Translations under genes and position numbers: made by a program
Origin: Antedon mediterranea
Taxonomy: Eukaryota; Animalia; Echinodermata
Assembly: GCF_964355755.1 (NCBI RefSeq)
Contig: NC_092677.1
Coordinates: 5,292,101 to 5,356,100 of the forward strand
Direction of reading: 5' to 3'
DNA: 64,000 bases
Notes under the pieces: model-generated
The model's input: the letters and a program-made list of their open reading frames with translations, nothing else
The model's database searches: none
What the model was told of the DNA's origin: nothing
Part shown: piece by piece, positions 1-64,000 of the stretch
Position numbering within the stretch: position 1 is the first letter of the stretch
Layout: every line of letters begins with the position of its first letter

Positions 1-281
1 TTAACACAATATCGCAAAACAGAACACCAATAAGACTGGAAATTGGCACAGCCATTCTTCTTAACCAGAAATAGAAAACATTTTTATAAAATTGTGGTCA
101 GTTGAAGAATTCACTAATTGCATTTTTAAAAATCACAGTAAATACTGCTGCAGGATATTTAACTGTAATGTATATTCATTTAAAACATTGATAGAGGTTT
201 TTCAACGATAAGATGTATTTCCATTGAAATAACTTTGTTTTGATAATTGTTTATAATTGATAATAAATTTGTTGTTAACAG

Positions 282-3200
282 TTATTTCAGAAGATTCAGG
301 ATCATCATATGCCATAATTCTGATTATTTTGTTTGTTGGTTTATTGACATGGTTTCTTCTTCTTGTTTGTAAGTATCATGTACTGTATTACTTAATGTCA
401 CTTTGGAATATCATAAGCCCTTTTTATTTCAGTGAATTTTAATAACAGTATTCACAAATTTGAAACCCTCAACTATGTTAGGGTTACATGGAGTACTATT
501 AGAATGTTTTTATTTAGAATTTTTTATTTAGAATTTTTTATTTTTGGGATTTTGATTATTAATTGTAGTTTGATGAGTAATGAAACGAAATAAATACTGC
601 ATGGACATAGATTACATAATATTTCATAATGATATTGATACAAAGATTGCTTTTACAGTATATTGGTAGACCAATAGGATTTATTTTAATTTAAAAAAAT
701 TTATTTTGTTTTAGATTTTATTTTTTACAAGAACATTGAGTGGAGCAATCAAGATAATGATATAGTGAGAGTTGAAGGTGGTAATCCAGTTGTGATGAGT
801 TTTAAATACCGTCCAAGTATTGCAAGGTTCAAGACTTTTGAAATAAAGAAAGACAACAAGGTGCTTGGTTCAAATCAAAAGCAATTCATTAGTTGTAAAA
901 CAGTCTGTCAGTTTGTCTGTTATTGCTGTCTTTACTTTTTTGGATTTTTTTGTATTGAATACTGCATAAATAAAGGTAAGTTACATATTTTAATTTTGTT
1001 AGTAGGTCATTGTTTCTCAAGTCATCATTTCTGACAGTTCTAAAAGTTAGTAGTCTGATGTTGTTATTATTGATATATAAAAGTTTTTAAATACAGCACT
1101 TTTTTAGTTTATTCTGCTGGGAGAATGATACATTGTTTGTATATCATTTCTGTTCATTATACCTGTACATTAGATGAATATTTTCTTATTTTTATTTAAT
1201 AGTTAAATACAACAATAAAGATAAAAAGAAACATGGAAGGAGGTGAGTTGAGTTTGTAACATTGGTGGGATTTATTTTGATTATTATATTTTAGCTAATT
1301 ACAAATTTTATTGAAAGGTTATGGTTAATAAAAGAGAATGTCCTGGTGATGCATAGGTCTTCTTTGTAGTTTAATATTATTATCTTGTATTGTGTTCCTT
1401 ATAGCAGTGGCAATAGAGGTGGTGAAGAGTATCAGATGATGGTCAATGAAAGACAAGGTCCTGATGGTGCAGAGTTACCTGCTGTTGTAATACAATTACC
1501 TAACAAGGATACAACAACTGACGAAACTGCTGTACAACAACCAACAGCAGCCACTGAATCTGAACAAAGTTCAGAGGTATTGTGAAAATACTAAATCCTT
1601 CATTCCTTGAATTGAAAGTACAAAGATACAAAAAGAAAAAAGACATGTTTGTTTAATAAAGTATTGTGTGTTTTGTGGTGTTTCAAAAAGGAAATTTTGA
1701 CTCCTCCAATTTGATTCCTCTTTGGTACTTAAATTCTGTTTTTTACAATAAAATGTTATCCTTTTTTTTCTAATTAGAGTAAAACCTATTCTTTGGGACA
1801 CCTCTATTCAAGGGCCACCCCAATTAAGGGGATACTTATCTGTGAAATGAATGAGACGCAATTTATTATATTGTAGCACTATGGCCAACCTTATTGTGAG
1901 CCAAATGTGACCCTTATGGGTTTTACTATATTAACAAAATATAATTGTTTTTTTCAAAGACAAATCCTGATGACGAAGATACTGAACTTTTAGCACAACA
2001 TCAAGCAACATCTGATGTTAATACTGAAATTTCTGAAGAGGAAGGTAAACTTTTTTATTATTTTCTAGAATACTTTTTTAGTATTTGGTAGGGGAAATGT
2101 TAACATTTGTTGTCACTATAATGTATTCTCAAAGCTGAGGTTTCCATTTTGAAAAAGTAAATTCGATATTACCTGATACTTTTATTGTCAATATGAACAG
2201 ATTGACTTTAGAATTCTTTTTCAGATGTAATAAAAACATGATGACATTAAAATGTTAAACACATGAGCAAATCAAAAGATATATAATCCTATTTGCACTA
2301 TATATTGTGTACCGGTATATTGAATTATGGGTAGCATTTTAACAAACCTGACCACCTCCAACCTACAATACAAAATATATTAATTAGCTGTAGATGGCAA
2401 GATTTATTGAATATGAGTTCATGATGTGGGATGCGAAATGTTTCTGATATTAAAATTCAATTCTTTCTCTCTGCTCTATTTTTACAAGTCTGAAATCAAA
2501 ATCATTATAATTATATTTTTTTAATCAATTTTGTTTACGTTTTGCTTGATAAATCTCAAACTCAATACTACTGATCAGTAAAGTACTTTTTATGTTTTTT
2601 GTTTAAAAGGATGACATTTCGGCAACAATCATACAGTAAGAATTTATTAACATAAAAGCTTTAGAATGAGGCCTCCTCATTTTTTAAAATAATTTCTCAC
2701 TTCCAATTCTAATCCTATAAATCCTAACAATGCATAGGATATTATTTGATAATGTTTCTTGGGTTTTTAAATTCATTGGCTTTTAACAATCATCAAAAAA
2801 TTAACACGTGAAAGATAATTACAGGCTCTTTTTAATTTATAGACAAACCCTTTTTGCAAATAGAATATTCTCTAGGTTTGCTCAAACAAACATAGAGCAG
2901 AGGGTATGCATGTAGCAGCATCTCAAAACAAGATTTTGTTTATTTGTTTTTAAAAAGTGGTATTCCAATTCAGTGGTTCTTTGTTATATACAGTTTATTT
3001 CTGGCTAAATATTTTAATGAAATGTTAGTTTCTAGGTTTATATATATATATTCAGGTTGAAATTTTCAGACCGTTTGGATAGCTGAGTGCTCAATACTGT
3101 ACCAAGGTAGAGCATAAAACAAATTACTCAATTAAATGGAAAATTATAAAGAAATGCAAACCTTACTCAAATATTAACAAAAGATGTAATTTATGTATAT

Positions 3201-3517
3201 ATGAAAAGTATGTTATTATATGTCAACCAGAGCTATGCTCACTGAACCGTAAGAACGAGTTAGTCTCTACTTGTAGACATAGGAAAAAATTCTTACTAAA
3301 TTGCAGATCCAAACAGTTTATCTAAAACAATAGGCTATTGTATACGACTTCCTGATGACTCACTTTTATTAAGCACTATGAGACAACTGTGTCACTTATG
3401 TTTTATATTTCACCTGAAGAGTGCGGCCAGCTACATGCTGGTCGTACGAAACAAATTTGTAGTGATTAAAACAATGAAGTAACCAAGTTTTCTGCTGTTA
3501 TTTTATTTATATATATA

Positions 3518-3552
<35 letters not shown>

Positions 3553-6500
3553 CCTCTTACATTCTATAACATTTGCAACCATTAATTAAGTACTCTAACA
3601 CTGCCTTTGATTTTTAAGATCTACCTTATTTTTTCCTTTGTTTCTTTGTACTTTTTCATGTAAAAGTTGGGGATACTCATTTCCATTGTATTACAATATT
3701 GTCTACTGTGTAACCTTTACTTATGAAAAAGTAGAATTAAAAATTACCGAACCTGACTAAAGCTGAAACCACAAGAAAAAAAGGCTAGAGGACATCTACA
3801 TGCAATTTATATTAAGATTTTATTTATGTACAGTATTTGTTGCTACTACTCAATTGGATTTTATTTTTAAAAAGCATGTTTCTTAAATATTTTTGCCCTT
3901 CAACAGATTATGTATACTTTTTCTAAGACTAAGTTGTATTGTTGTTGTTTTTATTTTGTTTTAGCAAAAGACTCAAATGAAAGGTAACGGTTTGTGGTAC
4001 TATAGCAATAAAAGCTTATTTAATGTTTTGCTTTAATTGCTTAGATTATTTATGTTGACAATTTAAAACACCAGAATATTATCTATCATCTTATTTACCT
4101 AATCATTTTCTACTTTTATTCTTCTGTTTGTTAGTTACTGTGTAGTACAGCTGTATCTGCCAATATTTGTTTGTTAACTGAAATCTAAATAAAATACACT
4201 ATGTACATCAAGCACCTTTAAACCACAAGCTTCTATTTTGTGTGCTACATCTACAAACACCAACAATGTATTTTGGTTTATAAACATAACTGATTTTGAT
4301 TTGAATTCTGATTCTTAACTTTTTTTTCCCTGCTCTAAAGTTACAATCTTCGTCGCATACTTTGTGATCTTCAATATGCTTAATTTAGTGAATCTTCACT
4401 ATGTGTTTGTTGGAATATTTGCTGCGCTTATTTGTAAATCTTTGGTGAACTTACTTTTCGTAGTATATTGCTTTTTTTATACCACTGTATTTTATACTCC
4501 CACTTTGTGTGGTATAAGATGAATAAATTCCCTTACAATAACCTTTAAATTTTACATTCAATGGTTTAGTATTACCATGTGTTATTGTTTGTTTTAAATT
4601 CTAATTCTTTCTTCATTCTTTCTTTTTTTTTAGATCTGATAAGTACTCAAGTAAGTAACAACCATGATATTTTCTTTTAATATGACATTTACAAAGTGAC
4701 ATTACATTTATTTAAAGCTGATTCCTTCATAAAAATATGAAGTTTGTTTTAAGTAGAATAGAAACTTTCGTGTATATCAACATACCAGTATTTTATTCAT
4801 TGATCTATATACTCCATGGAAATTCACAAAAGCCCATTTTTTTATTGAATGGTGGATATCAAATTAATATTTTACTTTCAACTTGAAGGTAAATCATCTG
4901 CAATTAATATATATTTACTTTTCAGTGTTTACAAATGGAAGAGGAAAAATCAGCCTAACGGTTTCAAATCTCGTGATATCTGATTCAGGAGAGTACAACT
5001 GCAACATAGAGGGCAATAGACAGCAAGATCAAGGTGTCAAAAATGTAACTGTTTATTGTGAGTTTTATAAATGATTCATTTTATTATTTTATTTTTTTTT
5101 AATCACTTCACTCTACCATGTCAGATAAGATTACAATTAAATAATGTATTAAATAATTGTTTAAGTTAAATCAGTTCCATCTTACTTGAATCTTCGGGCT
5201 CTTGATTAAGGCAAATGCCTTTTAAACGCCCTCCATTTCTTCTGTATTTATCTAGAATTGGTAGCAAAATTTATCTCCCATTGCTCTGTCTTTGTTTAGT
5301 TGATCCTTGAATGCATTTATGTTTTCTGCTTGTACTGTAGTGTGGTATAGATTGTTCCATGTGTTGACGATTCTACATGAAAAGGAGTGGCTTCTGATTT
5401 TCAGTCGGGCTCTTGGCTTTCTTAATTTGAATTGATGGCCCCTTGTTCTACTGTCCTCTCTAAAGTCAAAAAAGGTTTCGGCTTCAATATCATCCAAGCC
5501 CTTGATAATTTTAAACACTTGTATAATGTCCGCTCTCCTTCTTCTGTAATTCAGTGTAGGTAATCCAAGCTCTTTTAATCTCTGATCGTAAGATTTATCT
5601 CTTAACTTTTTGACAATTTTAGTGGCCCTACGCTGCACTCTTTCAAGCTTATCCAAATCACCTTTTAGGAGAGGGTACCATATACAGCTTGCGTATTCCA
5701 GATGAGGTCGAATTATACTTTTATAAAGGGGCAGGAACATATCCTTATCCATGTAAGCAAAAGATCGCCTTACCAATCCAATGAGTCTATTTGCTTTATT
5801 TACAGCTTCATTCGTATGTAGTGAAAATTTTAAAGACTGATCAAAAGTAACTCCAAGGTCCTTTTCAGTATTGGCATTTGGCAGATCCTCGTCACCTTCC
5901 TCTGTTGGCATAGTGAATTGCATTTGTGGATTTGAATTTCCATAATGTATTACTTTACATTTATTAATGTTAAATTTCAGCTGCCATCTTTTAGACCAAT
6001 CGGATAATGCCTTGAGATCATTTTGAACAGTATCATTTCTGTTTTCATACACAACATTAAACATCTTAGTGTCATCTGCAAACATCCATACTTTAGATTT
6101 AACTGCATCAGGTAGGTCGTTTATGAAAATGATAAATAATAAAGGGCCTAACACGCTGCCTTGAGGGACTCCGCTTTTAACCGTAGACCATTCAGAAAAT
6201 GCTGCGGCCACTCTAACTCTTTGTCTCCTCGCTGTCAAAAATTGATGTATCCATCTCAGTAGGTTTCCTTTTATTCCGTACGCTTCCAATTTTGTTATTA
6301 ATCTCTGGTGGGGGATAGAATCGAATGCCTTACTAAAATCCAAATATACAGCATCAAAGTTTTCTCCCGCATCCAGCAATTTCGTCCATTCTTCCATCAC
6401 CTCCAGCAATTGTGTGACGCAAGATCTACCTTTCCGAAACCCATGCTGTGCTTTTATAATAAGGTTTCTATCATTTAGAAACTGTATAATTTTGTCTCTC

Positions 6501-9500
6501 ACAATTGATTCCAAAAGTTTGCATACGACAGATGTCAAACTTACTGGCCTGTAGTTTCCAACCTCCGTCTTGTCCCCTTTCTTAAAAATTGGTACTACAT
6601 TTGCACATTTCCAGCACTCCGGTAACTTTCCAGTCGATAGTGATTTGTTGTATATTGACGTCAATGGAGTTGCAACAATTTCTTTAAGTTCCTTCAGTAC
6701 TCTTGGATGCACGTCATCTGGTCCAGCTGATTTATTTGAGTTCATCTGCTGAAGGCATGTAAGCACTTCCTCCTTTGTCACTTCAATTGACTCCAAATGG
6801 TCATCCACGTCAACTCTTGGTGTAACTTCTGGCAATGACTCGAGGTCTTCATTCGTGAATACACTTGTGAAAAATGCGTTGAAAATTTCCGCTTTATGCT
6901 GATTGTCATCAGCCATATTACCCTTTCCATCCTTCACCAATCCAATAGATTGAGTTGTTTTGGTTTTCTCTCTTACATATTTCCAGAAACTTTTAGGATT
7001 TGTTTTTACTTCATTGCAAATTTTCCGCTCCAGTGCAATCTTTGCTGCCCTTTTTTCACCTGTTACTATATTTCTTGCCTTTTTGTAACTGTCATAATCC
7101 TTCTGTTGTCGAGACCTTGTAAACTTTTTCCATGCATTTTGTTTCATTTTAATTTTCCTCTGAACGTCACCAGTCATCCAGATAGGTTTATTTTCTTTTT
7201 TTATGTTTGACTTGGGAATACAGATCTGAACAGCATTTCTTATTGATTTATTTAAAGCTTCACAGGCCTCTTCAACATTTGTATTTTCAAATTGGTAGTC
7301 CACCTCAGTAATCAGTTCTTTCATTTTAATATAGTCACCCTTGTTGAAATTTAGCTTGTATTCCATTTTCTCTTGTATTTTAGTTACACAGTCATATGAA
7401 AACAAGATTGTTACGTGGTCGCTTTTTCCTAATGGTGGACCTATCTCAATTTCACTTATTTTGGTTTCATCCATGGTGATTACTAAGTCGAGTATGTTAG
7501 GTGTTTGACCATCTCGAAATCGTGTTGGTTGCTGTATACACTGGCATAGAAAATTATCTCTAAGGCATTCTATAAACCGATTACTTTTATGTGTTTCATT
7601 TTTATTTGTACTCCAAGAAATCCAATCAATTTCAGGAAAATTGAAATCTCCTAACATGATGAAATCAGAAATACCATTTAGTTCACTTGCTTTGTTGATA
7701 GCAGATAGTAACGCTTGATTTTTTTCGTCAATACTGTTAGGACTTCTGTAAATACATCCGCATAATAGTTGTTGCCTTTTATTTATTTCAATTTTGATCC
7801 ATAGTGCTTCCACAAAATTTAAATTCAGTAATTCGTTACAGATACTGGCATTCAGCTCTTCCTTCGCAAAAATAACCACACCTCTACCACTTCTGCCAGA
7901 ATCAAATTTTGTGTATCCCTTGATGCTTAACTCAACTTCCAATATGTCTGTACAAGTTTTGTTATTTACTTCAGTTATTGCAACCACATCAGGTTTCCTT
8001 TGATTTATAATATCACGTAACTCACCTATTTTATTTCTCAGGGCATCTGCGTTTGTGTAAAGAAATTTCAACGACTTCTCATGAAAATCAACAATATCAT
8101 CGTTTCTTAAACTAGATTTCTTCTGCTTTAATCCTTCTATAAAAGTTTTAAATTTTTTCTTGTCCTCTGAACATTTTTTTTTTCTTATAAATTTTTGTTT
8201 CACTTTTCTTTCTAAGTTAAAATAATTTTCTTCAAAACAAAAAGATTCTATATTTGAAAATTCTTTATGATGATGAACTAGGGCCTCGAAAACGATCAAA
8301 CGCCGGTTCGCTATCCCGCTTCATAATTTTACCTCTTCTTATAACAAGATCAATCTCGCCGTTATCTTTCCTTGATCTTAGTTCCTGTCTTAACTCATAG
8401 TTCATTTGCCTCTCTTTTTTTGATCTATCAGGATTAATATATATGTTCTTTAGAAATGCGTGATCCGTGCTTCTAAGTTTTTTTGCATTTACCATCACTT
8501 CCCTTTTACTTTTCAGGCTATCCAGAGAAACTCTTGCCATTCTACACCCGTCTTCCGTGTATTTCCCAAGCCTGATCACTTCTGTTATTTTAACTCCCTC
8601 TATCTCTAGACACTCATTGAATAATTTCTCAATAGCAACCCTGTCTTCCTTCAGTCTCTGCTGAGAACTTTGGTTATCAGATTCAGGTAGATTTTCGATC
8701 ACAATATTTAATTTACGAGATTCTCTATCTCTATATTCTTCAATGCCTTCCTGAACACTCTCTTTAATTTTCCCATCCATTAGATCGTAGCTCTCTTTTA
8801 ATTCTATCAAATTATTTCTTGTGTCGACCTGGATTTTTTCAATGACTTCAATGTTTTTATTGTTTAGTGATGCTCTAAGCGCCTGATCTTTTTGCGTTTT
8901 TTCCACAATATTTAATCTCGCATTCATATTTTCCATGTGTTACGTTCATAATTTTTATCTATCTAGTGGATAAGTAGTGGCCACCATTCCTTCATCTATG
9001 TAAAATGAATTATAACAATGTAACTTAGCTCTGTTTACACTATCAAACTAGTTTGAAAAAAAAGTGTGATGTTCCAAAATATGGTAGTGATGCTCAAATA
9101 CGGTAGTGATATGACATCATCATGTCCATATATGGGCACATCACATTGTTTTGTAAAGTTTGATAGTGTAGACAAAGCTTAAGAGCAAATTTCATCAGCT
9201 TATATATTTTTTTAAAGGGATTGAGAGGAAAAATCATGAGTACTCAACAGAAGAAGGTATCAATAATTTTGAAATGAAGTGCAGATATGGACCAGCAGAT
9301 ATGCCATTAACAGGTTACAAGTGGAAGAAGATTAGGGAAGATGGCACAACAGAGATTGAGGATTGTTCTAAAGATTCTAGATTTGAAGTAACAAGTTACC
9401 AAAATAGCATTCTGTCTTTGAAGATAAAGAATGTTGTACTTGGTGATGCTGGGATGTATCAATGTGAAGTGAAGCCAGTTGATGGAGAACAAATACTGAA

Positions 9501-12500
9501 AGATACTACACATCTGACAGTGAAGGAAGGTAATTTTATAGAATTAAATGAGAACCTGTTTATTTTTTTTGTATGGTTTAGAAAATGTGTGTGATAGTAA
9601 AGTATATGGTACAGTTGAGAAAATGTTGATGTTTATAATGCCTGATAAAGTGAAGAGATTGCCTACTGTAGTATTTCCAGAAGTTTTTTCTTTAAAGGCC
9701 TATACATGGAATGTTTGTTTATCCTGTGTAATAATATACATATTGATAATCTATTATTTACTAGCAAAATATAATGTAAATTTTGTATTAAGCTGATGAA
9801 TATATTTTTGTTTAAAAACATTTTTTCCTGGAAATGTCTTTTATAGATGTTATCAAAATGGAGATTTCTGATGTTACTATCTATGAGGGTATCAATAGTG
9901 CTACATTGTTGTTAAACATAAAATATGTTGATGATTCTGTTAACATATCAAAAATCACATGGTATAACCTTGTTGAAGGTGAAGAAATTATGTTGCTGAC
10001 ATCAGCTGATTCACGCTATGAATGTGAATATTTGGATTCAAAGAACAGTGTATGTTTTAATATCAACAATGTTGAACCTGAAGATGAAGGAGAGTACATA
10101 TGTGAAGTAGAAGTTAAAGGAAGACAGAAAATATACAGATGTTCTGGAAGGCTAACGGTTAAAGGTAATGTATATGCTGCCAAATTAAAATACCTGGAAT
10201 ACCGGAGGTTGCAAATTCTTGAAATTTAATTGTGAATCCAAATCAAACATACTGTAAATTTGAAGATGTAAACAAAATTTTTCCACACACTTGCTTATAG
10301 CAATACTCATCAACAAATGCATTTCTTAGGTAGTTTTTTTGTTTGAATTCAAATATTTGGTTCAACAGAAATTTATAATTCCCAGCAATGTTTTAACTGT
10401 ATATATGAACTGTTTTATAAGTTGTTTTGTGACTGTGTAATTTGGTAGTAGTCACTCTCATACTGTAGGCCTACATTTAAAAGTAACACATCCAAATGCC
10501 AACTTTAAGTCAATGGCTACCAGATGTCTCTGTGAGACGGTTATCTGAACCAGTACCAGTATTCTGTCATTAATATCTACTGTTTTGAAACTGTGTTCAT
10601 ATTATGGTATCATTACATGAGTTGATTCTTTTTTTATATATAGAAACATTAGGGGCCTATACTCCCAAAAAAAGTAAGCAACTCTTACAAGTTTCAGTTA
10701 CTGTATAATAACAAAAATGTTTGTTTTTAATTAAATTTTGTTTGGACCATTTGTATTTGTAGGTCCTATAAAAATGGATATTCCTGATGTTATAACCAAT
10801 AAAGGTGTGGAATGTGATAAGTTGTTGTTGAAACTTACATATTTTGATAAGTCTGCTGAAATATCTAATATCACATGGTATAAGCAGGTTGAAGGTGAAG
10901 CAAAAGAGCTGACATCATGGCAGTCACCTAATCCAACGTCTGCACAGTCACCTGATCCAAGATCCGCACAGTTACCTGATCCAAGTTCCATACAATCACC
11001 TGATCCAACATCAGTACAGTCACCTGATCCAACATCATCACAGTCACCTTATTTAACATCACACTATGAAATGGGATTTGTGGGTCAGAGCAATGTATAT
11101 CTCAACATCAGGAATGTTGAATTTGAAGATGCAGGAAAGTACACATGTGAAGTGAAAATTGCAGGAAGACGGAAAACATACAGTTGTTCTGGAACTTTAA
11201 CAGTTCAAGGTATATCTAAAAACATTTCTTGGCTGAAATTAAATACTACACTACTAATACAACCTTGGAAGTAATATGTTTAGAAATGGCAAATATGGTG
11301 TTTTCTACAAAAGATTAACAATAATAGTGAAAACTAATTGTATATTCCTACTTTCAGATATGACACTAAATGACTGTCTTGTGACAGTTGAAGATAAAGC
11401 TGTTTTAACTTGCAGGTATCAAATTAAGAATCCAGTAAAAGCTATCAATTGGTATAAGAAGACTTTTGGTGAATACAAGATGATATATACTTCTGATGCA
11501 TTCAATCAAAAGATAGCAAATGTACCAGAAAGATATAAATCAACTTTTAAGGATAATGAAACAAGCTTAGAGTTTGAGCAAGTGTCGGTAACTGATGCTG
11601 GAGAGTACATGTGTAAACTTGAGACTGAGCACTGTACACCCATGACCAAATTAGCAAACTTATCTGTACAATGTAAGTAGATTTTGAAATATTTAATTTT
11701 CCATAAAAACTGATATATTAATGTTGACTGTATTGAGGGGCATTATAGGCTATTTTATACCTATAGACTGGCTATTATAATCAATCAAATAGTATGTAAA
11801 CCATGTGATTTAAATGTATTTATAGTACTTGTTAATAATAAATTTCTCTTGTGCCATTTGGCCATTTATTCACAATATTATACAATCAGTTCAATACATA
11901 AAATTAAGAAGATAGATATTTTTCAAAATGTTTGCTCCATTTACGTTTAATTGCTTCTTTTTGTAATATAATTGAAATGTTATTAATAATGTTGATTTCA
12001 AATATACCCAATTAAAATGACAAATCAGTTTGAAATTTAATGGCTTGACTTGTTATTTTAAAGTAAGTAAGTCAAGTTTGCTGACACCTATACATTAATA
12101 TGTTTTGTTTTGTAGTTGATGTGTTTACTGGAGTTGATGAACTAGGTAACACATACAGGTAATTGCCTTAATATTTATTACCATCATGATTCGAAAAATC
12201 AAGACATTTAAAACTGCATGATTGGTTTGTTGATATCCATTCAATTGTTAGGTTTTTTTTTGTTATACTTCACAAGACTTTTTATTTCCCATTTTCAATC
12301 TTTTTTTTCCCTTGTTTTATAGACACCCTGCGGTAGTCTTTTTGAATTCCCATTTACTTGTCTTTTGTGTGAAAAACAACTCGGATGTAATAATGAGAAG
12401 AGGAAAGATGAACAAGAAGAGTTTGATTGAATGGGAAGAATCAAGAGTTATTTTACGTGAAAAAGATACTAGGTATTAGATAATGAAAATATTAATCTAA

Positions 12501-14434
12501 TTTTGTATTGCATAAAAAGATTATTAAAGTTTATTTTAAAAATTCACATTAAAAATTGATTCTAACTCTTGAGTACAATGCTTTAATGAAATGTATCTGC
12601 TTAAAAAAAGGGGATACAATTACAAATCTCAGTATTATTTTAAAGCACTAATTAATTATAAAATTACCATGACTATTTTTGCACTGTTGCATTGTTTAAT
12701 ATTTACTGTACAGCTATCATAATCTAGTACCAATTGTAACAAATAATGGAAAGGTGATTCTAATGTGTGGTAAAAAAGATAATAACAACACAAAAGAGAG
12801 GAAGATGATAAGGCTGAAATCTGATGATAATGGAGAGAATTGGATTGAAGCATGTAATGTAGAAAACTCTCCAGGCGATATTCTAAGTAAGTTATTTTTA
12901 AATATTAAAGCTGAGATTAATGCACTTTTCAGGGTTGGATCCATGATTTATTTTGTTTTATATATGGTTTTATGTGTCTTTTATCGGTTTTTATGTGAAA
13001 TCTTTTGCCAACAACTTTTTATTTTTCAGGCCTAGGTCATGGTGTATGTTTAGATTCAGGGAAATTAGTTATTGCAGGAGTTGAAAATCTGGACAATAAC
13101 GAGAGTAAGAAAAGTAACACAATTAATAAACTTTTGTAAAATTATGGATGTGCTTAATATTAATATTCAAACAATAATAAAAAAATGATTTATCTTTTGT
13201 AAGTTCAACATACTGTAATTTAACATAACATCACTAATTGTATTGTGTATCATTAAAAATAAATATAACAGTGACATTGTTTTTTTTTGTGGAATTTGAA
13301 GAATTGTGTTTGTGTTGTTTTTGCAGGAAAACTATTTGTAATGACCAGTACTGATGATGGTGACACTTGGAGTATTGTATATGCTGAAGAGAACACTGGT
13401 ATGCATCTCATAAGTCTATATTTAAAGAAACATTGATTTTTCTTCCTTTCTAAACACCTTACAGATTTTATCTGACAAATGTTATTTTTAGAAAATTGTA
13501 AGAAAAGTATGAATTGTGCAAATAATTCAGCAAATCTTTTGTTTGTGTAGAAAATCTTTGGAGTACTGATAACCTTAACAGTTGGGAACTTCTAAATACT
13601 GTTAAACCACATGATGCTACCTTAGGAGAACACATACAAGTAAGATTAAAGAAGCTTTTCATAAAGAGACACTCTAGTAGTTTAATAGTATCTCTATGGT
13701 TTAGTTTGAGAATGGATTATTTTTGTCAAACACGAACTTTAGTTTACTGCTTTAAGTGCCATTTTGGCATAATATCTCATTTGTTCATTAGGTTGTTGAA
13801 TATGCAAATGACCAAGTTTACATCAGCTGTTCTTTGGAGAACAGTAATCAACGTTTGACTGCATACAGCAATGATGGATGTGAAACATTTGAAATTGATA
13901 ATGAATTATTGGAGGCAAATCCAGAATGTCAGGTAATCTACATGCAAGTCTTGTATATCTAATGTATTGTCAACTGTCTAGTCTCATCTATTGTGGTACT
14001 GAGTGTTGTCGTTGCTATGGTGTGAGAACGTATAATTGTTGTGTCCAATCAAATGACAAAGATCTACGTAACTGTAAAAAACTGCTTTGTCTCATATTAA
14101 TATAATTAAAATGTTATTTAAATTGTATTATATCAAGGGTGGTATTGTACGTTTACCAACCAAGACAGATGAGTATTACCAAATAGCAATGGCAAGTCAT
14201 GGAAATGAAACAAAGAAGGATCTTACACTTTACTTAAGTGAAGATGGTTGTAAAACCTGGTGTCAGTTTAACACACTAGGTGCAGTGAATGCAAGAGAAT
14301 CTGACCTAGCTTACTACAGTGTAAAAGAAGGGAAAAAAGAAGCAGAAGGAATAGTGTGTGTTTACAGTTATGGTTCAGATACAGAGGGGTATAAGATTGG
14401 AATGCAGTTAAATTCTAACAAAGAAATTATGTAA
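282..14434 (+). CDS. Gene A1 (5' end outside window): TM, Cys-string/split Ig, 4 Ig domains, sialidase-like (GH33) domain
   Basis: Phase-compatible GT-AG exons: 282-368 (TM, YAIILIILFVGLLTWFLLLV), 715-975, 1203-1242, 1405-1576, 1960-2044, 3965-3983, 4634-4650, 4926-5057, 9218-9529, 9847-10164, 10763-11209, 11358-11672, 12116-12158, 12323-12472, 12714-12886, 13030-13104, 13327-13398, 13551-13639, 13792-13932, 14138-14434 (stop). Ig DxGxYxC motifs and Asp-boxes are present. The exons are conserved in A2 and, up to the window end, in A3. Confidence 0.8.
3051..3508 (+). mobile_element. Penelope-like retroelement 3' fragment inserted in a (TA)n tract
   Basis: Encodes KWKIIKKCKPYSNINKRCNLCIYEKYVIICQPELCSLNRKNELVSTCRHRKKFLL, resembling the C-terminus of a PLE GIY-YIG domain. 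It is followed by a hammerhead, flanked by TA repeats and absent from A2. Confidence 0.75.
3410..3465 (+). ncRNA. Type I hammerhead ribozyme
   Basis: tcac-CTGAAGA-gtgcggccagc/tacat/gctggtcgtac-GAAA-caaatttg-TA-gtga: conserved core, stem II, palindromic stem III and stem I. Confidence 0.8.
3509..3549. repeat. (TA)n microsatellite
   Basis: Seen directly; the corresponding tract in A2 is at about 34203-34236. Confidence 0.95.
5252..8299 (-). CDS. CR1 ORF2: APE endonuclease plus reverse transcriptase, uninterrupted
   Basis: 1015-aa ORF with YTNA, GDFN, LDLV, SDH, NYRPVSLTS, QHGF, YLDFSKAFDS, GVPQGSVLGPLLF, FADD and the CR1 C-terminal RTRGH motif. Confidence 0.95.
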   Translation of the reverse strand: MIVFEALVHHHKEFSNIESFCFEENYFNLERKVKQKFIRKKKCSEDKKKFKTFIEGLKQKKSSLRNDDIVDFHEKSLKFLYTNADALRNKIGELRDIINQRKPDVVAITEVNNKTCTDILEVELSIKGYTKFDSGRSGRGVVIFAKEELNASICNELLNLNFVEALWIKIEINKRQQLLCGCIYRSPNSIDEKNQALLSAINKASELNGISDFIMLGDFNFPEIDWISWSTNKNETHKSNRFIECLRDNFLCQCIQQPTRFRDGQTPNILDLVITMDETKISEIEIGPPLGKSDHVTILFSYDCVTKIQEKMEYKLNFNKGDYIKMKELITEVDYQFENTNVEEACEALNKSIRNAVQICIPKSNIKKENKPIWMTGDVQRKIKMKQNAWKKFTRSRQQKDYDSYKKARNIVTGEKRAAKIALERKICNEVKTNPKSFWKYVREKTKTTQSIGLVKDGKGNMADDNQHKAEIFNAFFTSVFTNEDLESLPEVTPRVDVDDHLESIEVTKEEVLTCLQQMNSNKSAGPDDVHPRVLKELKEIVATPLTSIYNKSLSTGKLPECWKCANVVPIFKKGDKTEVGNYRPVSLTSVVCKLLESIVRDKIIQFLNDRNLIIKAQHGFRKGRSCVTQLLEVMEEWTKLLDAGENFDAVYLDFSKAFDSIPHQRLITKLEAYGIKGNLLRWIHQFLTARRQRVRVAAAFSEWSTVKSGVPQGSVLGPLLFIIFINDLPDAVKSKVWMFADDTKMFNVVYENRNDTVQNDLKALSDWSKRWQLKFNINKCKVIHYGNSNPQMQFTMPTEEGDEDLPNANTEKDLGVTFDQSLKFSLHTNEAVNKANRLIGLVRRSFAYMDKDMFLPLYKSIIRPHLEYASCIWYPLLKGDLDKLERVQRRATKIVKKLRDKSYDQRLKELGLPTLNYRRRRADIIQVFKIIKGLDDIEAETFFDFREDSRTRGHQFKLRKPRARLKIRSHSFSCRIVNTWNNLYHTTVQAENINAFKDQLNKDRAMGDKFCYQF
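8265..8936 (-). CDS. CR1 ORF1, C-terminal part (coiled coil plus RRM-like region)
   Basis: RKLNIVIENLPES, RLGK and IYINPDRSKKER are typical of invertebrate CR1/L2 ORF1. The apparent ATG lies in the junction microhomology, so the ORF is likely truncated. Confidence 0.85.
   Translation of the reverse strand: MENMNARLNIVEKTQKDQALRASLNNKNIEVIEKIQVDTRNNLIELKESYDLMDGKIKESVQEGIEEYRDRESRKLNIVIENLPESDNQSSQQRLKEDRVAIEKLFNECLEIEGVKITEVIRLGKYTEDGCRMARVSLDSLKSKREVMVNAKKLRSTDHAFLKNIYINPDRSKKERQMNYELRQELRSRKDNGEIDLVIRRGKIMKRDSEPAFDRFRGPSSSS
9028..9178. mobile_element. Harbinger/Tourist-like MITE
   Basis: Imperfect TIRs GCTCTGTTTACACTATCAAACT / AGTTTGATAGTGTAGACAAAGC with TTA on both sides. The left half is deleted in the A2 copy. 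Confidence 0.65.
10921..11064 (+). repeat. 24-bp coding tandem repeat (QSPDPTSV-like x6) inside an Ig exon of A1
   Basis: Seen directly in ORF 10738..11274. Confidence 0.9.
12116..14434 (+). CDS. Sialidase/neuraminidase-like beta-propeller domain of A1 (8 exons), probably catalytically dead
   Basis: YRHP (the Y/FRIP motif), IMRRG...IEW, LGHGVCLDSGKLV, Asp-boxes SDDNGENW, STDDGDTW, SNDGCETF and SEDGCKTW, LLEANPECQGGIV, ESDL and CVY occur in the same order as in NEU2/3/4. Confidence 0.85.
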
Positions 14435-15636
14435 AAAAAAAGAAAATGTCTTTATGCAGTAAATATCATCTACACTATTTATTGTCTTTTTTTTAGATTT
14501 AACAATGTTGTCTTATTTATACAGATAATAATGGATTTGATTGTTTTTGTAGGAAATCTGTATTAATGCTGTATAACAATATAATAGGTTTTAGTGTGAA
14601 ATGGTAATTTGTTTTATGAGTATAAGTCGTTGTTATCTTTTATGTATTTCCACCTAGCTTAATGGCATAACCAAACGTTGCTACCTACTTTAAAATAGTA
14701 TTAAAGATTGACATTTTTTTAAATAGTTAGATTTCAGAATATATAGTATGTAATTTGCATGGTAATGCCAGCAACAGCGGTAAAATTAAAATTAAATTAG
14801 GCCTGTTTAACTTTATTAATAACACGTTCAAGCTAATTTCTATCATTATTGTTATCATCTAGCATTTGTAATTGTGAATACAGTACTAAAATGTAAATAC
14901 TCAATAATTAAGTTTTTAATATTACAATAACAAGAACAATGACGTGATTATTACATGATTGTGTATCTTTTCAATAGAGTATCGTACGATAAAATTTAAC
15001 ACATTTTCGGTGTAAACGTCTGCAATAATAAAGTATTTTCCTTTTTAAAACGTTAATTAAGCATTATAGAATGTGGTTATCGGTGATTTTTTGTTGTTGA
15101 AAATACTGCAATCGCCAAATGAAATGGTTAGTATACTGCTGTTGACCTAAAAATACCGTGAAGTTGTCCTTACTGATGTGTGGTGGTCGTAATACTCAAT
15201 CCACCAATTTAATCTATTAACTGTACATATTTTTGTGAACTTTTGCATTGATTGATTGATATGATACCACAATCGTGTGCTATCGTTTACAATATAAAGC
15301 TCTATAGGTACCGATATTACTGACTTTAATACTACCATGTAGGCGCTAATGGCTGATCTAATCTAAACTTCCTCTCCAGTTGGCGCGCAATTTCAACTGC
15401 CCCTAACATCCCGTGAAATATAATATCTAATGTACAGAGTAGGCTGTTTCTACCGCAAAACTATTAAAAAGGTTTTTGTTTAATATTTTTTTTTTTAAAC
15501 GAGCAATCAGCACCGCTTACTTTGAGTAACAAGCAAATGTTAAAATGTAAAAATACCATGGGAAAGTATTTCATTTTTAAATTCTCTAGAACTCATGCTA
15601 CTTAATTTACTTTAAACTTGGTGATCATGAATATAG

Positions 15637-18600
15637 TTAGTCATAAAACTGTTTACAGTAATAAGGTTCTTCAACCTTTCCTTTTTGTGACGTACTACTA
15701 ATTACAGCATCATTAGGTTCTGCATAAACTTCCAAATAACTTGCAGAAATAAGACCTTCGTACTCGGGATTTCGGCGTTCCATTTTAATTTCTCCTCTTT
15801 CCTAAAGAAGCAAAACAAATATTGGTATTAACCTCATTGAGTGTGAGCGAATATTTATTACTGTATTTAAGTTAGATTAAAAATCAATTATTGTTTGTCT
15901 TGGATGACGGTCCCATAAATGGTGTCACAGTGTGTAAATTTTAAATAGTTTTACCTCTACTTTGTCAATGCATTCTGTTTTCGACATAGGCTTGACATAT
16001 CCCTCGTCATCTAGGCATTCTGTTTTCGACATAGGCTTGACATATCCCTCGTCATCTAGGCATTCTGTTTTCGACATAGGCTTGACATATCCCTCGTCAT
16101 CTAGGCATTCTGTTTTCGACGTAGGCTTGACATATCCCTCGTCATCTAGGCATTCCGTTTTCGACATAGGCTTGACATATCCCTCGTCATCTAGGCATTC
16201 TGTTTTCGACATAGGCTTGACATATCCCTCGTCATCTAGGCATTCCGTTTTCGACATAGGCTTGACATATCCCTCGTCATCTAGGCATTCTGTTTTTGAC
16301 ATAGGCTTGACATATCCCTCGTCATCTAGGCATTCTGTTTCCGACATAGGCTTGACATATCCTTCGTCATCTAAGCATTCTCTTTTCGACATAGGCTTGA
16401 CATATCCCTCGCCATCTATGTTTACATCTAAGCTTGTCGAAATTTGCAAACATTGATTCTTAGGATTTTTATGTTCCATTTCTGTTACTTCTCTCTGTAA
16501 AACAGCCAATATATAATTTAGGTTGTGAGTTTTCATCATACAATTTTGATGTTAAATCTTGTCACTTATTGACACATTTTCGGTATGCTCTTCTGGAAAT
16601 AGATTGTAGCTAAACTAAATTTAAACATGACTGATCATTTTTAAAGTCAGACATAGTTAATGAATCAGAACTTAAATATAAAACTATTATCTTTAACTTG
16701 TTATGTCACAGTTTTGTATCTACAGAAATGTTTGTTTTATTACCGACTGGTAACCAATTGTTACTTTAGTAGGTGACGTAGGCTTGACATATCCCTCGTT
16801 ATCTGTGTCGACATCAGAGGTTGCTGACACTTGGTTCTTAAGATTTTGATACTCCAATTGTATTACTTCTCTCTGTAAAACATACAATAGATTATTTTGG
16901 GAAGTTTTCGTGATAAGTTCAAAAAACATTTATTTATTCAACAATGGCATTATACAGTATAATATAATTATAGGTGTGTACATAAATGAAAACATAGTAA
17001 TAAGCCATCATTTGGGGTCTTCTCTAGAAGAAAACAAGTGTCTTGTCTCGAGAAAGACCCCAGAAACAATACACATACATTTAATGTATCACTTATCTAT
17101 CTGTTTAAAAATCTTGAGGTACCGGTACGCTCTGCTGGAAATATAACTAAAAGGTAGGATTTGAGTATTAAACTATGAATTGGTAAGACACAGTCTCTAA
17201 ACTACAGAAGTGTTTTCTACTACCAAAACTTATAAACAATTGTTACTTTATTAGAAGTTGGCTTGACATATCCTTCGTCATCATAGCTAGTCGAAATTTG
17301 CAGACTACTAATTACAGCATCATTAGGTTCGTCATAAACTTCCAAATAACTTGCAGAAATAAGACCTTCGTACTCGGGACTTCGGCGTTCCATTTTAATT
17401 TCTCCTCTTTCCTAAAAGAGCAATACAAATATATTTATTATCATCATTGAGTGTGAGAAAATAATTTGTAAATTTTTCTGTTGAGTGAAAGTCTGTGGCT
17501 TTTTAGAAAATGTAATATATAATATTTCGTACGCCGGTGGCAAATAGCTGAGAGTGGAATGTACCCCAGATGTTCTTTTCGCTAAACCACAGGTACTAAC
17601 AGTAAAAAAATTTAAAGAGCCATTAAAATTACACCTCTTTTCTGAGGCATATGAAATTAATGAATAAAAGAAATCGGATTCTCAATCAGCTACAGTATGT
17701 GGTTGCTAGGAGCACTTGTAGTGGATATGTGCGCTATATAAATTATTATTGTTATCGTTATTATTACAGTCGATCGAATCAACTTCGCCATACTTTTTCT
17801 ATGTCTGATTTTTATGGTATAAAGTAGCAATTACAATGTAAAGTAAGAGGTACTTTAATTGTCAAATATGTACCGCACTGATACTTCCAACACGCTTGGT
17901 GGTCCTCGCGCTTCGTTGCTATGTTTTTGTCTGTCATCACTAGTCCTTTGTACTTAAAATGTTGCAATTCTATTTCTATTACTTCTCGACTTCCGATGGT
18001 GAACTGGTGTCGCAATGTAAAATGTATATTTTAAATTACCTCAACTTTTGCGATACATTCTGCTTCAGACATAGGCTTGGCATATCCCTCGTCATCTATA
18101 TTTACATCAGAGTTTGTCGAAATTTGCAGACATTGGTTCTGGGGAATTGGAAGTGCCATTCGTGTTACTTCTCTCTGTAAAACATGCAATAAATCATTAA
18201 TTATGTTTTGTATATTTTGTGTTGAATTTTGACAGCCAACTGGTAACTTGTCAATGAATAATAATTATGTTAAACTCCATTCTGTATCATTTTGAATCAG
18301 TTCGCATTTGTCGTAATGGGAAAATAACTGCTTTTGAGTGTCAAGTCCGACCATAAAGTTGAAATTTAGTTGAGTTTTAGTATTAAACAATATTTACCTG
18401 TATTCTTGTTCTAGGCCTTGCTTTATTTGTCGTCCTGGTATCACCGGCGTCCACGGTATGCTCTTTGTTTATCTCTTTGTAATCTCCAACATTTGAAGGA
18501 AATTTCAATGTTTGATATTGAGGATTTTGATAATCAAAATGGATTTCTTTTATTTGTCTTACCTTAAAGAAACAATACTGATAACAGTAGATATAATATC

Positions 18601-21600
18601 TATTAAAATTACATTTTAGGCCTACCTTTCTTTTTTAGTTAACCACTTTCGTTTTATATTGTATTAATATATTAATAAGTTTTAGTAAAAGTCAATATTT
18701 TATATTGATTTAAAAGTACTTACAAAAATATAACGGGTTATTAGAAACGTCGGGACGGAGCAAATAATTGAAGTTAGAGCTACAGTTATGACCACAGTTA
18801 TCAAAGCATAACCTAAAAATGCAATGTAAATGTTGAACAGAACATAGGCCTAGTACTTAGTATAATTAATTATGGTTATAATATATTGGAAATCTCACTT
18901 TAGTAACAGAGGCACACTTTGTTGATAAAGGTGCGTTCAAATGATAAGTTAAATGAATGAAAATAAATGCAAACATGTGTATAATACAGCAGGCATACAA
19001 AAATAAAATTAATAACTTAAAATGAATAAAATGAATCAAAAAATGAAACTGTAATAACCTAATCCAAAATGTATACAAAAAAACCAATAAAGAACATTGA
19101 ATGCAGATAATTTGAAATATTTTTTCTTTTTAGTCAACTTTACCTGTATTGCAGTTCTCTAGTGATGTTGTTTCATTAAATATTTCGTTCTGTACATAAC
19201 ATGTACAATTTGATTGATATATCTCATCATTGATTTCTATAGTTTCTGAATAGTTTTCTTTCTTAGTCACTTCTCCATTTTGCAATATCAATAGGCCTAC
19301 TGATGATGTTTTTGGGTATCCCTCTACTGTAAATGTTGCAAGTCCATCTTCAGTTTTTAATGTTACAATGATATCTAAACAAAACAGAAGCTAAAAACGT
19401 AACTATTAAACTACTATTAAAACACTGCTTGGTTTAAACTAAAACACTCACTAACTGGTTTAATACTCTTTAACAATGTTGAATCAATGTAGGTATAACA
19501 CATAATGTAGGCCTAGCATAATAATCAATTACGCAACAGCAGTTGAACATATTTTGAACTTTCTGTCATTTTTTCTAAAAAAAATAATTATTAACTGAAA
19601 AACTTTTAAAACATGTTTACATTTTTTCTACCTTAACTTGTTCTACTGTTAAGTTTTTTGTTTTACATTTTGTTACGTCGATTAAGCTTTTTTTTAGCGG
19701 TTGATTGTTACGTTTACATACAATAATATGCTCAACTGTATTTATTTTCAATACTGGTCTAAAGTGGTGAATGATTAACAAGTTGAAATGTAATCATTCA
19801 GACACTAACACATATTACTTGGTAAATACAGTATGGTGACATACCTTTCAAATTTTCTGTAGGCCCATCTGTAGGCATATCTGCTTTGGGCCTACAGTTC
19901 TCAAGTGATGTAGAGGCATTCAGTTTTTCATTCTCTGCATAACATGTAAGATTTGATGAACATATCTCATCATTAATTTCTATAGTTGCTGTATTTTCTC
20001 CTTTCTTAACCACTTCTCCATCTTGTAATATCAATACTGATGATGGCTTGGGATGGCCCTCTGCTGTACAGGTTGCAAAACAATCTTCATGATTGAATGT
20101 TGCGATCATATCTAATGAGGGAAGATAAAGCTTAAAGCTTAAGAAAATGAATATTCTTTTGGAATCGATATAGGCCTAACAGCAAGAAAATTAAGCTTGT
20201 TATTACAGATTCAGTTCATCACACCTTTATTTAGTTATGAATATATCTGGGCCCTTACAGAAAAGGACCCACCACAGGACTCTAAATGAAAGAAAAAGAA
20301 ACGAAAGAAAGAAAACTTTTAATAAACAAAGCAAATTCAAAAAGTTATTTTTAATTATGGGACCCTTTCTAGAAGTACAGTACAATATATGGTAAATGAT
20401 GAACAAGAAAACTATTTATAAACAAAGCAAATTCTAAAGGTAAATGAAACATTCAGTAGGTGGGGGAGTAGGGGCAGAAAAAATAATAAGGATATTCAAA
20501 ATTTAAGTATTCAGAATATATATAGAAAGTTTATTTTTACAAGAAAACAAAACAAAGGAAAACAAAACAGTGATATTTTTTCTAATTCAACTTATCAAAA
20601 TTACTACCGTATATTACATAAAAACTATATTTTTGATCGGCTCATATCATTAATAGTAGGCTATCATTAGATACAAACAAATGTACCACAACATATATTT
20701 TCTACGTACAAAATATTTCCAAATGTTTTCCGGCACTAATTTTAGCATCAAGTCCCTTAAAAGGATCACTTTCTGCTTTACATGTGTATATACCACTGTC
20801 TTCCATAGTGGCTGCTTCAATCTTAAGGGCATTGCCGTTGGTATTCATCTTCTGTCCATCTTTATACCAAGTAATGTAAGGAATAGGATCACCATCAGGT
20901 TTACTACAAGTAAATGTGACTGTTTCACCTTCATAAGCAGTGCTTGCTGAGGCATTAAGACGTGGTTGATCCAAGTCTGAGAAAAACAACGAAAATAATG
21001 GTATAAAAATTTACAAATGTAAGAATGAAAGACATTTATAGAGTAGACCTAGTATTAATGAGGCATTAAGACGTGGCTGATCCAAGTCTGAGAAAAAGTA
21101 TAAAACAAATTAGACAGCAGACAAATAAAGATGTAGTCAACACAAATTACAACAAAAAGAAGTGTATATAGTACTATGCCTATTGATACTCAAGAAAATG
21201 TAACTCTAATTCCGGAGTTATACTATTGGCGTGACGTGGGAACATTTACAATTATAGGCCTACTATTTAGTAAAAAAATTATTAAGGATGTCGGTTTATG
21301 ATAGCTTTTTTTTCAGGCTACATCATGATTATCTGGTATACTCACAATTTACAGTTAGCATAGATGGACTTAATAATGTAATCATTCCAGTTGCTGTTTG
21401 TATCTGGCATCTAAATATTCTTTGAGAATCATATCTCAAGGGCTGTAAGATCACCAGACTAGCTTCACCAGGAGCAGTGTGTAACAACCGGAAACGTCCA
21501 TTTTCCATCTTTTTATCATTCACAATTCCTGGGTAGATCGTTACTTCATCTTCATTTAGTTCATCCCATTGTAGTGAAGTAGGAGTAGAAGTAAATTGTG

Positions 21601-21989
21601 AATAATCACAAGTTATCACCACTTCAGCATCTCCTTCTTTGGCTGTCTGGTTAAAGGTCGTTTGACCATGTGCTTTAAAATATCAAGCATATCCTATTGT
21701 TTATATTTAACCAATGATAATTCAAAATTTAACTGTCTCAACCTAAAAATATATATATTCTACGAAGTCATGCAAACAAGTAAAAGAATAAAACTGCTCT
21801 CAATCAGCATCAGCTGTTTTTAGTTTTACGCGTTCGTAATCTGGTTATTGAAAAATAGTTTAATATTAACTGACTGACTAAAAAGTGTATGGTCGTTTAG
21901 TTGTTGATTATCATATTTAATTATATTTTAATTATCTTACCGACTAAAGATTGTATATATACAATAAATAAAATTCGCTTCAAACCCAT
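15637..21989 (-). CDS. Gene B1: type I Ig receptor (SP, IgV, 3 Ig, TM) with an ITAM/ITIM/YxxP-rich tail
   Basis: Exons 5'->3': 21989-21941 (MGLKRILFIVYIQSLVG), 21672-21346 (V), 20976-20710, 20111-19845, 19374-19144, 18812-18724 (TM), 18562-18398 (ITAM), 18174-18040, 17411-17247, 16872-16765, 16494-15955, 15801-15637 (stop). All are GT-AG and in frame. Confidence 0.82.
15967..16416 (-). repeat. 45-bp coding tandem repeat, DDEGYVKPMSKTECL x10
   Basis: Seen in ORF 15925..16539; lies within a phase-0 exon of B1. Confidence 0.95.
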
Positions 21990-34198: not shown

Positions 34199-34240
<42 letters not shown>

Positions 34241-63775: not shown

Positions 63776-64000
63776 GTAAATAAACCATCCTTGAAATGGG
63801 TGTCATGTAAACTCAGATTTTAGTTTCATTAAAAAAATAATTTGTTCTAATCAGAGGGATTTCAAAAAGACTGTATCTTTTTATAAATATTTCATTAAAT
63901 ATATTATTACTGTGATAATATAATAATTTTAGTTTAGATACTCTAAAGTAATAGTATTCCACATAACCTACCCTCTGATTATAGAGCAATCCATTTTAGT

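Follow-up and report, generated by a model that had tools for sequence, protein, structure and literature searches.

The window analysed here is a 64,000-nucleotide stretch of the genome of the crinoid Antedon mediterranea, a feather star (contig NC_092677.1, positions 5,292,101 to 5,356,100 of the forward strand). It carries tandem copies of a receptor-like gene, the product of which ends in a propeller domain of the sialidase type. Judged from its residues, this propeller very probably has no sialidase activity. We lean, by a modest measure, towards reading it as a sialidase-derived pseudoenzyme that lacks five of the six catalytic residues and acts as a protein-docking scaffold on the predicted cytoplasmic side of the membrane. 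The propeller of the first copy is laid out as follows:

12116..14434, forward strand: pseudo-sialidase propeller of copy 1, eight exons (PF13088 BNR_2, E-value 9e-20 on RefSeq protein P0001)
12116-12158, 12323-12472, 12714-12886, 13030-13104, 13327-13398, 13551-13639, 13792-13932 and 14138-14434 (with the stop), forward strand: the eight propeller exons of copy 1

These are the final eight exons of a 20-exon open frame (282-14434), which begins with a transmembrane exon and terminates at the stop at 14434. The matching 20 exons of copy 2 run from 30747 to 41598. An earlier reading of this DNA from its sequence only (the sequence-only reading) had called the frame, splice sites and Asp-boxes of both copies intact. 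In agreement with it, AG/GT borders are found at all eight domain exons of both copies, each of which has a single terminal stop. The tail of RefSeq protein P0008 is identical to the spliced domain of copy 2, and P0001 carries the end of copy 1; both proteins are from A. mediterranea. The copy 2 propeller spans residues 1109-1454 of XP_071958852.1, and XP_033114277.1 is a further propeller protein.

Six residues are essential for sialidase activity according to the available part of a survey of the family (PMC3431349): R21, R237, R304, Y334, E218 and D46. Their positions in copy 1 are occupied as follows:

12157-12158+12323, forward strand: R21-equivalent codon, split AG/A by an intron; the sole essential residue retained
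12369..12386, forward strand: shortened loop, with Val for E39, Asn for R41 and the D46 loop deleted
13631..13633, forward strand: His at the E218 position
13831..13833, forward strand: Ser at the R237 position
14213..14215, forward strand: Lys at the R304 position (Asp in copy 2, at 41377)
14297..14299, forward strand: Glu at the position of the Y334 nucleophile

All motifs quoted in the sequence-only reading (YRHP, VFCVKNNSD, ISCSL, TKKDL/TDKDL and RESDL/EESDL) are present in the spliced frame. Its statements that the Arg of the RIP motif is kept and that R237, R304 and Y334 are lost hold throughout the family, and the reduction of the AFAExR..D loop holds in Antedon. Residues were counted in an alignment of 14 family rows and 31 comparison sialidases, the latter regarded as intact by sequence alone, and each denominator is the number of rows that cover the position. 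R21 is conserved in 11 of 11 family rows and in 27 of 27 comparison sialidases. R237 is replaced by Ser or Thr in all 12 family rows (Arg in 31 of 31 comparison sialidases), and none of 13 rows has Arg at 304 (30 of 30), so that R21 alone survives of the Arg triad. Tyr334 is likewise absent (0/13 compared to 30/30), its place being taken by Glu in 11 Antedon rows and by Ser and Cys in Anneissia. Asp is found at position 46 in none of 11 family rows, compared to 27 of 28; the loop is deleted in eight Antedon rows, and three Anneissia rows have Thr or Ser. Outside the essential six, R41 has become Asn or Gln, E355 is retained in Anneissia only, and N86 and E39 are mostly retained.

The sequence-only reading had regarded E218 as probably kept in the motif LGEHIQ. 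This is not the case, because the Glu of this motif is at position 217, one residue off, where the family varies (E/G/I/N). At position 218 itself, all 12 family rows that cover it have His and all 31 comparison sialidases have Glu. Four alignments place His at 218: the multiple alignment, a profile-profile alignment (99.9% probability), BLAST against the intact Antedon enzyme, and a comparison with NanI. The spacing of 16 between this His and the Ser at 237 equals that between Glu and Arg in the intact Antedon enzyme. A phmmer alignment of P0014 with NEU2 shifts the region and puts Gly opposite E218, but phmmer also misplaces the Glu of the intact enzyme there, and neither register yields Glu at 218.

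The fold itself is predicted to be that of a sialidase. The Pfam BNR_2 profile scores above its cut-off in six of the first seven paralogs. An AlphaFold2 model, calculated from a 140-row alignment, is a six-bladed propeller with a predicted local distance difference test score (pLDDT) of 90.1 and a predicted template-modelling score of 0.90. In a whole-fold comparison, along the lines proposed in the sequence-only reading, the top structural matches of this model are human NEU2 entries (Foldseek E-value 1e-16, template-modelling score 0.76; Z 37.4, root-mean-square deviation 2.5 over 311 residues). Bacterial sialidases follow within about one Z unit. The model is not independent of sialidases, because real sialidases were contained in the alignment. 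A search of the ESM Atlas with P0014 returned sialidases only. Four Asp-box-like motifs, some of them degenerate, are found at domain residues 101, 155, 227 and 282, and the F/YRI/VP motif is present as the variant YRHP. Thus the predicted domain has the propeller, the F/YRI/VP motif and the Asp-boxes of an active GH33 exo-sialidase, but not the Arg triad, the Y334/E218 pair or D46. The family is a GH33-derived pseudoenzyme and should not be classed as a GH33 enzyme. Its members are found in databases under the names 'uncharacterized', 'sialidase-3-like' and 'obscurin-like'.

The sequences indicate that the propeller fold is under selection, because the dead state is common to Anneissia, the strands are better conserved than the loops, and neutral frames would have closed. 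Besides additional Antedon paralogs, a profile search found three proteins of Anneissia japonica, and in two of these immunoglobulin (Ig) domains precede the propeller. The two genera belong to different families of Comatulida. When 1.84 billion representatives were searched, ten matches had E-values below 1e-30, and the named ones were all from Antedon or Anneissia, although other crinoids may be absent from that library. The dead domains are 42-44% identical between the genera and the intact enzymes 52-56%, the orthology of the intact pair not being established. Cross-genus identity is 0.46 in strand columns compared to 0.28 in other columns (P 2e-4), and the conservation of the columns correlates with that in intact enzymes (rho 0.36, 315 columns). 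None of 400 simulated neutral pairs remained open at 68%, 53% or 41% identity, in simulations that include substitutions only and are compared with annotated proteins, which are a biased sample of open frames. Furthermore, 49 of 346 columns are invariant in eight of eight rows, and 24 of these differ from the intact-enzyme consensus or match it poorly. Decay of the whole family into pseudogenes is rejected by the strand constraint and by the neutral simulations. The sequence-only reading had spoken of a conserved pseudoenzyme, and the case for it is now stronger than was claimed, in that two crinoid families lack five of the six essential residues and yet have a constrained fold.

The dead domain appears to descend from an enzyme of the animal itself. 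In a tree of 40 rows (the fragments P0007, P0015, P0020, P0021 and P0265 omitted, and no NEU1 row included) the 11 dead rows form a clade (support 100/100), which is the sister of four intact crinoid enzymes (100/98). The branch leading to the dead clade has a length of 1.34, with a further 0.79 to Antedon. A bacterial origin of the propeller is disfavoured, but only at a p-value of 0.046 in the approximately unbiased test, when the dead rows are forced together with seven bacterial or metagenomic rows. We infer that the intact sister enzymes are NEU5-like; the label follows the description in the available part of PMC3431349, and the tree has long branches and no identified NEU5 sequences. 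The dead domain is 25-32% identical to the intact enzyme. The intact crinoid enzymes P0017 and P0171 have no hydrophobic signal stretch at their start; the topology of human NEU3 is itself described as unsettled in the part available of PMC5482835. A crinoid NEU5-like gene may have been fused to the 3' end of a receptor gene before Antedon and Anneissia separated, and would have lost catalysis afterwards.

The propeller is the last domain of what appears to be a membrane receptor, whose parts in the first two copies are:

282..368, forward strand: transmembrane exon of copy 1, with the ectodomain exons upstream of the window
715..5057, forward strand: split Ig domain of copy 1 (N-half and Cys-rich segment at 715-975, five small linker exons, C-half at 4926-5057)
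9218..11672, forward strand: four post-membrane Ig exons of copy 1 (9218-9529, 9847-10164, 10763-11209 with a Ser/Pro/Asp repeat insert, and 11358-11672)
25237..41598, forward strand: copy 2, complete gene (RefSeq P0008), with a signal-peptide exon at 25237-25282 and four Ig exons from 25533
30747-30836, 31212-31472 and 39257-41598, forward strand: copy 2 continued, namely the transmembrane exon, the Cys-rich exon and, after further Ig exons, the propeller exons

The 46-base signal-peptide exon at 25237 of copy 2 splices in frame to the first Ig exon. The order of parts is a signal peptide, three or four Ig domains, one strongly hydrophobic helix, a Cys-rich segment within a split Ig domain, three to five more Ig domains and the propeller. 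Four RefSeq models (P0002, P0003, P0005 and P0008) run from the Ig ectodomain through the transmembrane helix and the Ig string to the propeller, and P0157 from the transmembrane helix onward. This is the plan of a type I Ig-superfamily receptor, as far as a signal peptide, an Ig ectodomain and a single transmembrane helix can be predicted. Membrane-span scores are -5.8 to -7.7 for the helix compared to +1.0 to +6.9 for the Cys-rich segment in seven of seven copies. A full-length AlphaFold2 model from 38 sequences has one confident helix, four Ig domains and the propeller, the split Ig domain being unfolded (pLDDT <50). The Ig halves on either side of the Cys-rich segment match complementary positions (2-49 and 70-109) of a profile made from 26 Ig domains of the family, which suggests that both halves share one side of the membrane. 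The C-halves score 11-20 bits and the N-halves 5.9-14.2 bits, compared to 11.7 and 5.1 bits for the two top-scoring of 200 shuffles. Enrichment of sequons is confined to the part before the helix (33 vs 15.8; after it 25 vs 21.9 and 15 vs 13.2), and the Cys pair is retained in all 13 Ig domains before the helix, by inspection, but in 17 of 26 after it.

The C-terminus is therefore likely to be cytoplasmic, since the propeller is predicted to follow a signal peptide, an Ig ectodomain, one transmembrane helix and more Ig domains. Neither this membrane topology nor the descent from a crinoid NEU5-like enzyme was noticed in the sequence-only reading. By analogy with CYSTM proteins the Cys-rich segment is predicted to be an S-acylated anchor. 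A Cys-rich hydrophobic stretch of CYSTM/CYSPD proteins that had been annotated as transmembrane proved to be a palmitoylated anchor, according to the available part of PMC10840359. The likeness is compositional only, the crinoid segment is internal, and no match to Pfam CYSTM is listed for the family proteins. The juxtamembrane region gave only generic Ig leads (0.85-0.86) in the ESM Atlas. The Ig domains at 715-5057 and 31212-36202 appear to be split by an insert of 100-170 amino acids with 7-9 Cys residues and an acidic linker from tiny exons (17, 19 and 40 bases); the Cys-rich part is omitted from RefSeq P0008 and retained in other models.

The faces of the propeller were assigned from secondary structure. 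The pocket face consists of 89-108 residues in the dead domains compared to 128-130 in the intact enzymes, the loops being 20-40 residues shorter. In copy 2 this face has 6 Lys and Arg and 17 Asp and Glu residues, whereas the intact Antedon enzyme (XP_071940874.1) has 22 and 12, respectively. The cross-genus identity of the face is 0.26 in the dead domains and 0.51 in the intact enzymes. Because the carboxylate clamp is gone and the pocket loops are shorter, acidic and weakly conserved, both hydrolysis and sialic-acid binding are implausible. Sialoglycans face away from the cytosol. With these functions set aside, protein docking would be the remaining role for a selected propeller on a receptor tail. 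The sequence-only reading had proposed that the fold is kept for binding, scaffolding or a decoy function. Of these, scaffolding fits, whereas glycan binding or a glycan decoy fits poorly with the loss of the clamp, the acidic face and a position behind the transmembrane helix.

The propeller genes alternate with two minus-strand genes, whose products may act alongside such a scaffold; these two genes and copy 3 are laid out as follows:

15600..21682, reverse strand: receptor A1, with an Ig ectodomain related to those of the copies, a transmembrane exon from about 18812 and a tail with 13 acidic Tyr repeats of the EGYxKP type
42760..48105, reverse strand: receptor A2, of the same plan, with nine repeats; head-to-head with copy 3
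55448..63783, forward strand: copy 3, 5' part, with an Ig ectodomain, a transmembrane segment near 57600, a Cys-rich exon at 58246 and Ig exons; its propeller, if any, is outside the window

A1 is tail-to-tail with copy 1 and head-to-head with copy 2. The V exons of the propeller genes and of the minus-strand receptors are 53-66% identical. The cluster combines related ectodomains with contrasting signalling tails, as clusters of paired immune receptors do. The tails of A1 and A2 contain a 45-bp tandem unit (15970-16418 and 43131-43398) and short EYEGL/YLEV motifs; a reading of the repeats as YxxM was rejected, since they are YxxP. In the proposed mechanism the variable ectodomain would bind a cell-surface or foreign ligand and the propeller would recruit cytoplasmic partners, probably together with the adjacent Tyr-repeat receptors. 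Recognition may be paired: once the ectodomains had engaged a ligand, one tail would be phosphorylated and the other would recruit partners through its Ig domains and propeller.

A number of observations speak against a constrained docking scaffold in the cytoplasm. Neither face of the propeller is strongly conserved between genera (0.26 and 0.35), which leaves no obvious docking surface. The scores of the N-half Ig domains are modest when the best shuffle reaches 11.7 bits, the sequon counts come from four related, non-independent proteins, and the A. japonica models examined do not include the transmembrane helix. The 17 post-membrane Ig domains that retain the Cys pair, and the moderate hydrophobicity of the Cys-rich segment (Kyte-Doolittle value 1.77), make a second membrane span conceivable. 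Copy 1 is fragmented in the RefSeq annotation (P0156 and P0001). The two window copies have 23 coding differences, 18 non-synonymous and five synonymous, and the ratio of the two rates (dN/dS) is 0.97. Since in addition 118 of 400 neutral simulations remain open at this distance, the intactness of the window copies, taken as a sign of conservation by the sequence-only reading, cannot show constraint by itself, and the support comes instead from paralogs and from a second genus. Genomic contigs of related copies contain 100 last-exon variants, of which the 40 that are listed comprise nine synonymous and 31 non-synonymous changes and no stops, a chance-like ratio (P 0.55); second codon positions are depleted among them (6/40, P 0.008) and are the only ones to be so. 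There are also broken copies: the tail of P0007 is frameshifted, P0015 is a fragment, and indels and skips occur in contigs. The sequence-only reading had named neutral decay in other copies as evidence that would count against it. Such decay is found in some copies, P0007 among them, but not family-wide, which fits birth-and-death in a gene cluster around a constrained family.

The strongest of the alternatives, although an unlikely one, is that the propeller is a structural passenger without a partner, which stays folded because a bad tail would destabilise the receptor, under weak selection that is relaxing in Antedon. The dN/dS of the window copies, the long branches of the dead clade, the additional losses in Antedon (E355, the D46 loop and a PGHG motif), the broken copies and the truncated isoform P0012 would all be expected of a passenger. 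However, a terminal domain can be lost by one cheap stop, yet it is whole in eight Antedon rows, two Anneissia rows and window copy 1, and the invariant columns, about half of which depart from the intact consensus or match it poorly, also count against a passenger.

Slightly less probable again is an integrated bait, by analogy with paired plant nucleotide-binding leucine-rich repeat receptors that carry integrated decoys. The dead domain would then be displayed in the cytoplasm to mislead a microbial effector or the regulators of the host's own sialidases, and the head-to-head Tyr-repeat receptor would relay the signal. The alternating head-to-head pairs with related ectodomains and V exons are in accord with this, as are the rapid duplication and loss of copies, the fast-changing pocket face and the derivation from the host's own enzyme. 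Mimicry is weakened, however, by the large divergence from the intact enzyme, gene adjacency may merely reflect inverted duplication, and no link between the family and immunity or any pathogen was found. If true, the bait would be an animal cell-surface counterpart of the plant integrated-decoy receptor pairs.

It is improbable that the propeller is a glycan-binding module or decoy, with the Cys-rich segment as a second membrane span and an extracellular propeller that binds sialylated or other glycans without cutting them. The retention of R21, and mostly of N86 and E39, as well as the Cys pairs and hydrophobicity noted above, can be cited in its favour, and an inactive trans-sialidase of Trypanosoma cruzi binds sialic acid according to the available part of PMC5504189. 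However, a single Tyr-to-His replacement separates that lectin from its enzyme (same source, same part), whereas here two Arg residues of the triad and R41 are lost and the face is acidic. The pocket that such a lectin retains, except for the nucleophile, is thus not found in the crinoid domain. The R21 codon is split by an intron, and therefore splice constraint may help to retain this residue in Antedon. The sequons, transmembrane scores, full-length model and Ig halves all point to the cytoplasm. Least probable of all is a re-purposed enzyme, with a new active or metal site of different chemistry made up of His218, Ser/Thr237 and R21. The His and the Ser/Thr are constant in 12 of 12 rows across two genera, but position 334 differs by genus (Glu compared to Ser/Cys), Antedon has lost E355, and conservation is lowest in the pocket loops.

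The docking scaffold favoured here resembles several known systems in part. With the metazoan GH33 NEU2/3/4/5 branch (human NEU2, crinoid P0017 and P0171) it shares the six-bladed propeller, Asp-boxes, YRxP and the SDL motif, but it lacks five essential residues, has shorter, acidic loops and is fused behind Ig domains and a transmembrane helix. Only sequences with every essential residue were admitted to the survey in which NEU5 was defined, and complete conservation of the six in animals is reported there, in the part of PMC3431349 available. Plasmodium CyRPA is likewise a sialidase-like propeller without activity, has one possible Arg equivalent and takes part in a ternary protein complex (PMC5349848 and PMC5349852, available parts). 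CyRPA, however, is a stand-alone invasion protein of the parasite, and its identity to structural homologues does not exceed 16% in these accounts, whereas the crinoid domain is a traceable descendant of a host enzyme on a predicted cytoplasmic tail. The T. cruzi inactive trans-sialidases are also an expanded family of dead paralogs beside active ones, in the available text of PMC5504189, but there the single replacement leaves a surface sialic-acid lectin, whereas in the crinoid domain the carboxylate clamp itself is lost.

The arrangement of the cluster recalls paired Ig-superfamily receptors, with clustered genes, related variable ectodomains and contrasting tails, and receptor pseudokinases and pseudophosphatases, with a dead enzyme at the cytoplasmic end. 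It differs from them in that the dead domain is a glycosidase located beyond a predicted intracellular Ig string, and in that the partner tail is of the YxxP type rather than an immunoreceptor tyrosine-based activation or inhibition motif (ITAM/ITIM). In the open-access literature no earlier description of a dead animal sialidase or of this crinoid family was found, nor of an Ig receptor whose predicted cytoplasmic effector end is a glycosidase fold. The family is a natural animal pseudo-sialidase, and because its intact sister enzymes occur in the same genomes, the change of an enzyme into a non-enzyme is open to tracing and testing. The cluster is furthermore a candidate for a variable recognition system of crinoids, a group in which immune and self/non-self receptors are little studied.

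The window contains a tandem duplication (about 1-19454 and 30460-47057) and the start of a third copy. The 5' part of propeller exon 6 (13551..13639, forward strand) resembles exon 5 and yields a low-confidence insert of about 21 residues, which five older paralogs do not have. The RefSeq models P0012 and P0156 end within the propeller at retained introns, after domain exons 5 and 1, respectively, and may be real shortened isoforms or annotation artefacts. No splice joints are found among the contig rows listed; the contigs behave as genomic DNA and so have no bearing on expression. The last exons of the two copies (14138-14434 and 41302-41598) differ by 5.7%, whereas exons 3-7 differ by 0-1%. 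The last exon is the most uniform across paralogs (80-89%), and gene conversion is a possible cause of this pattern. P0011, a more diverged member (53% identity to copy 2), is on a different Antedon sequence of 39 Mb. Pfam scans of single exons gave only sub-threshold matches, and one match, to Embigin, was judged spurious.

A 24-bp repeat encoding Ser/Pro/Asp/Thr within an Ig exon (10921-11060 and 37994-38205) differs in copy number between the two genes, and the third ectodomain Ig exon of copy 2 is tandemly duplicated (26961-27727). A retrotransposon of the long interspersed nuclear element (LINE) type, with an open 1022-residue endonuclease/reverse transcriptase frame and a 224-residue upstream frame, occupies 5252-8939 on the reverse strand, in an intron of copy 1 and not in copy 2. 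It is adjoined at 9027-9179 by a short inverted-repeat element of very high copy number (contig depth about 1e5). An intron of copy 3 contains, at 62415-63253 (reverse strand), fragments similar to the C-terminal portion of a LINE reverse transcriptase. The interval from A2 to copy 3 has an open 335-residue frame at 52056-53063 on the reverse strand, which may be PIF/Harbinger transposase-like.

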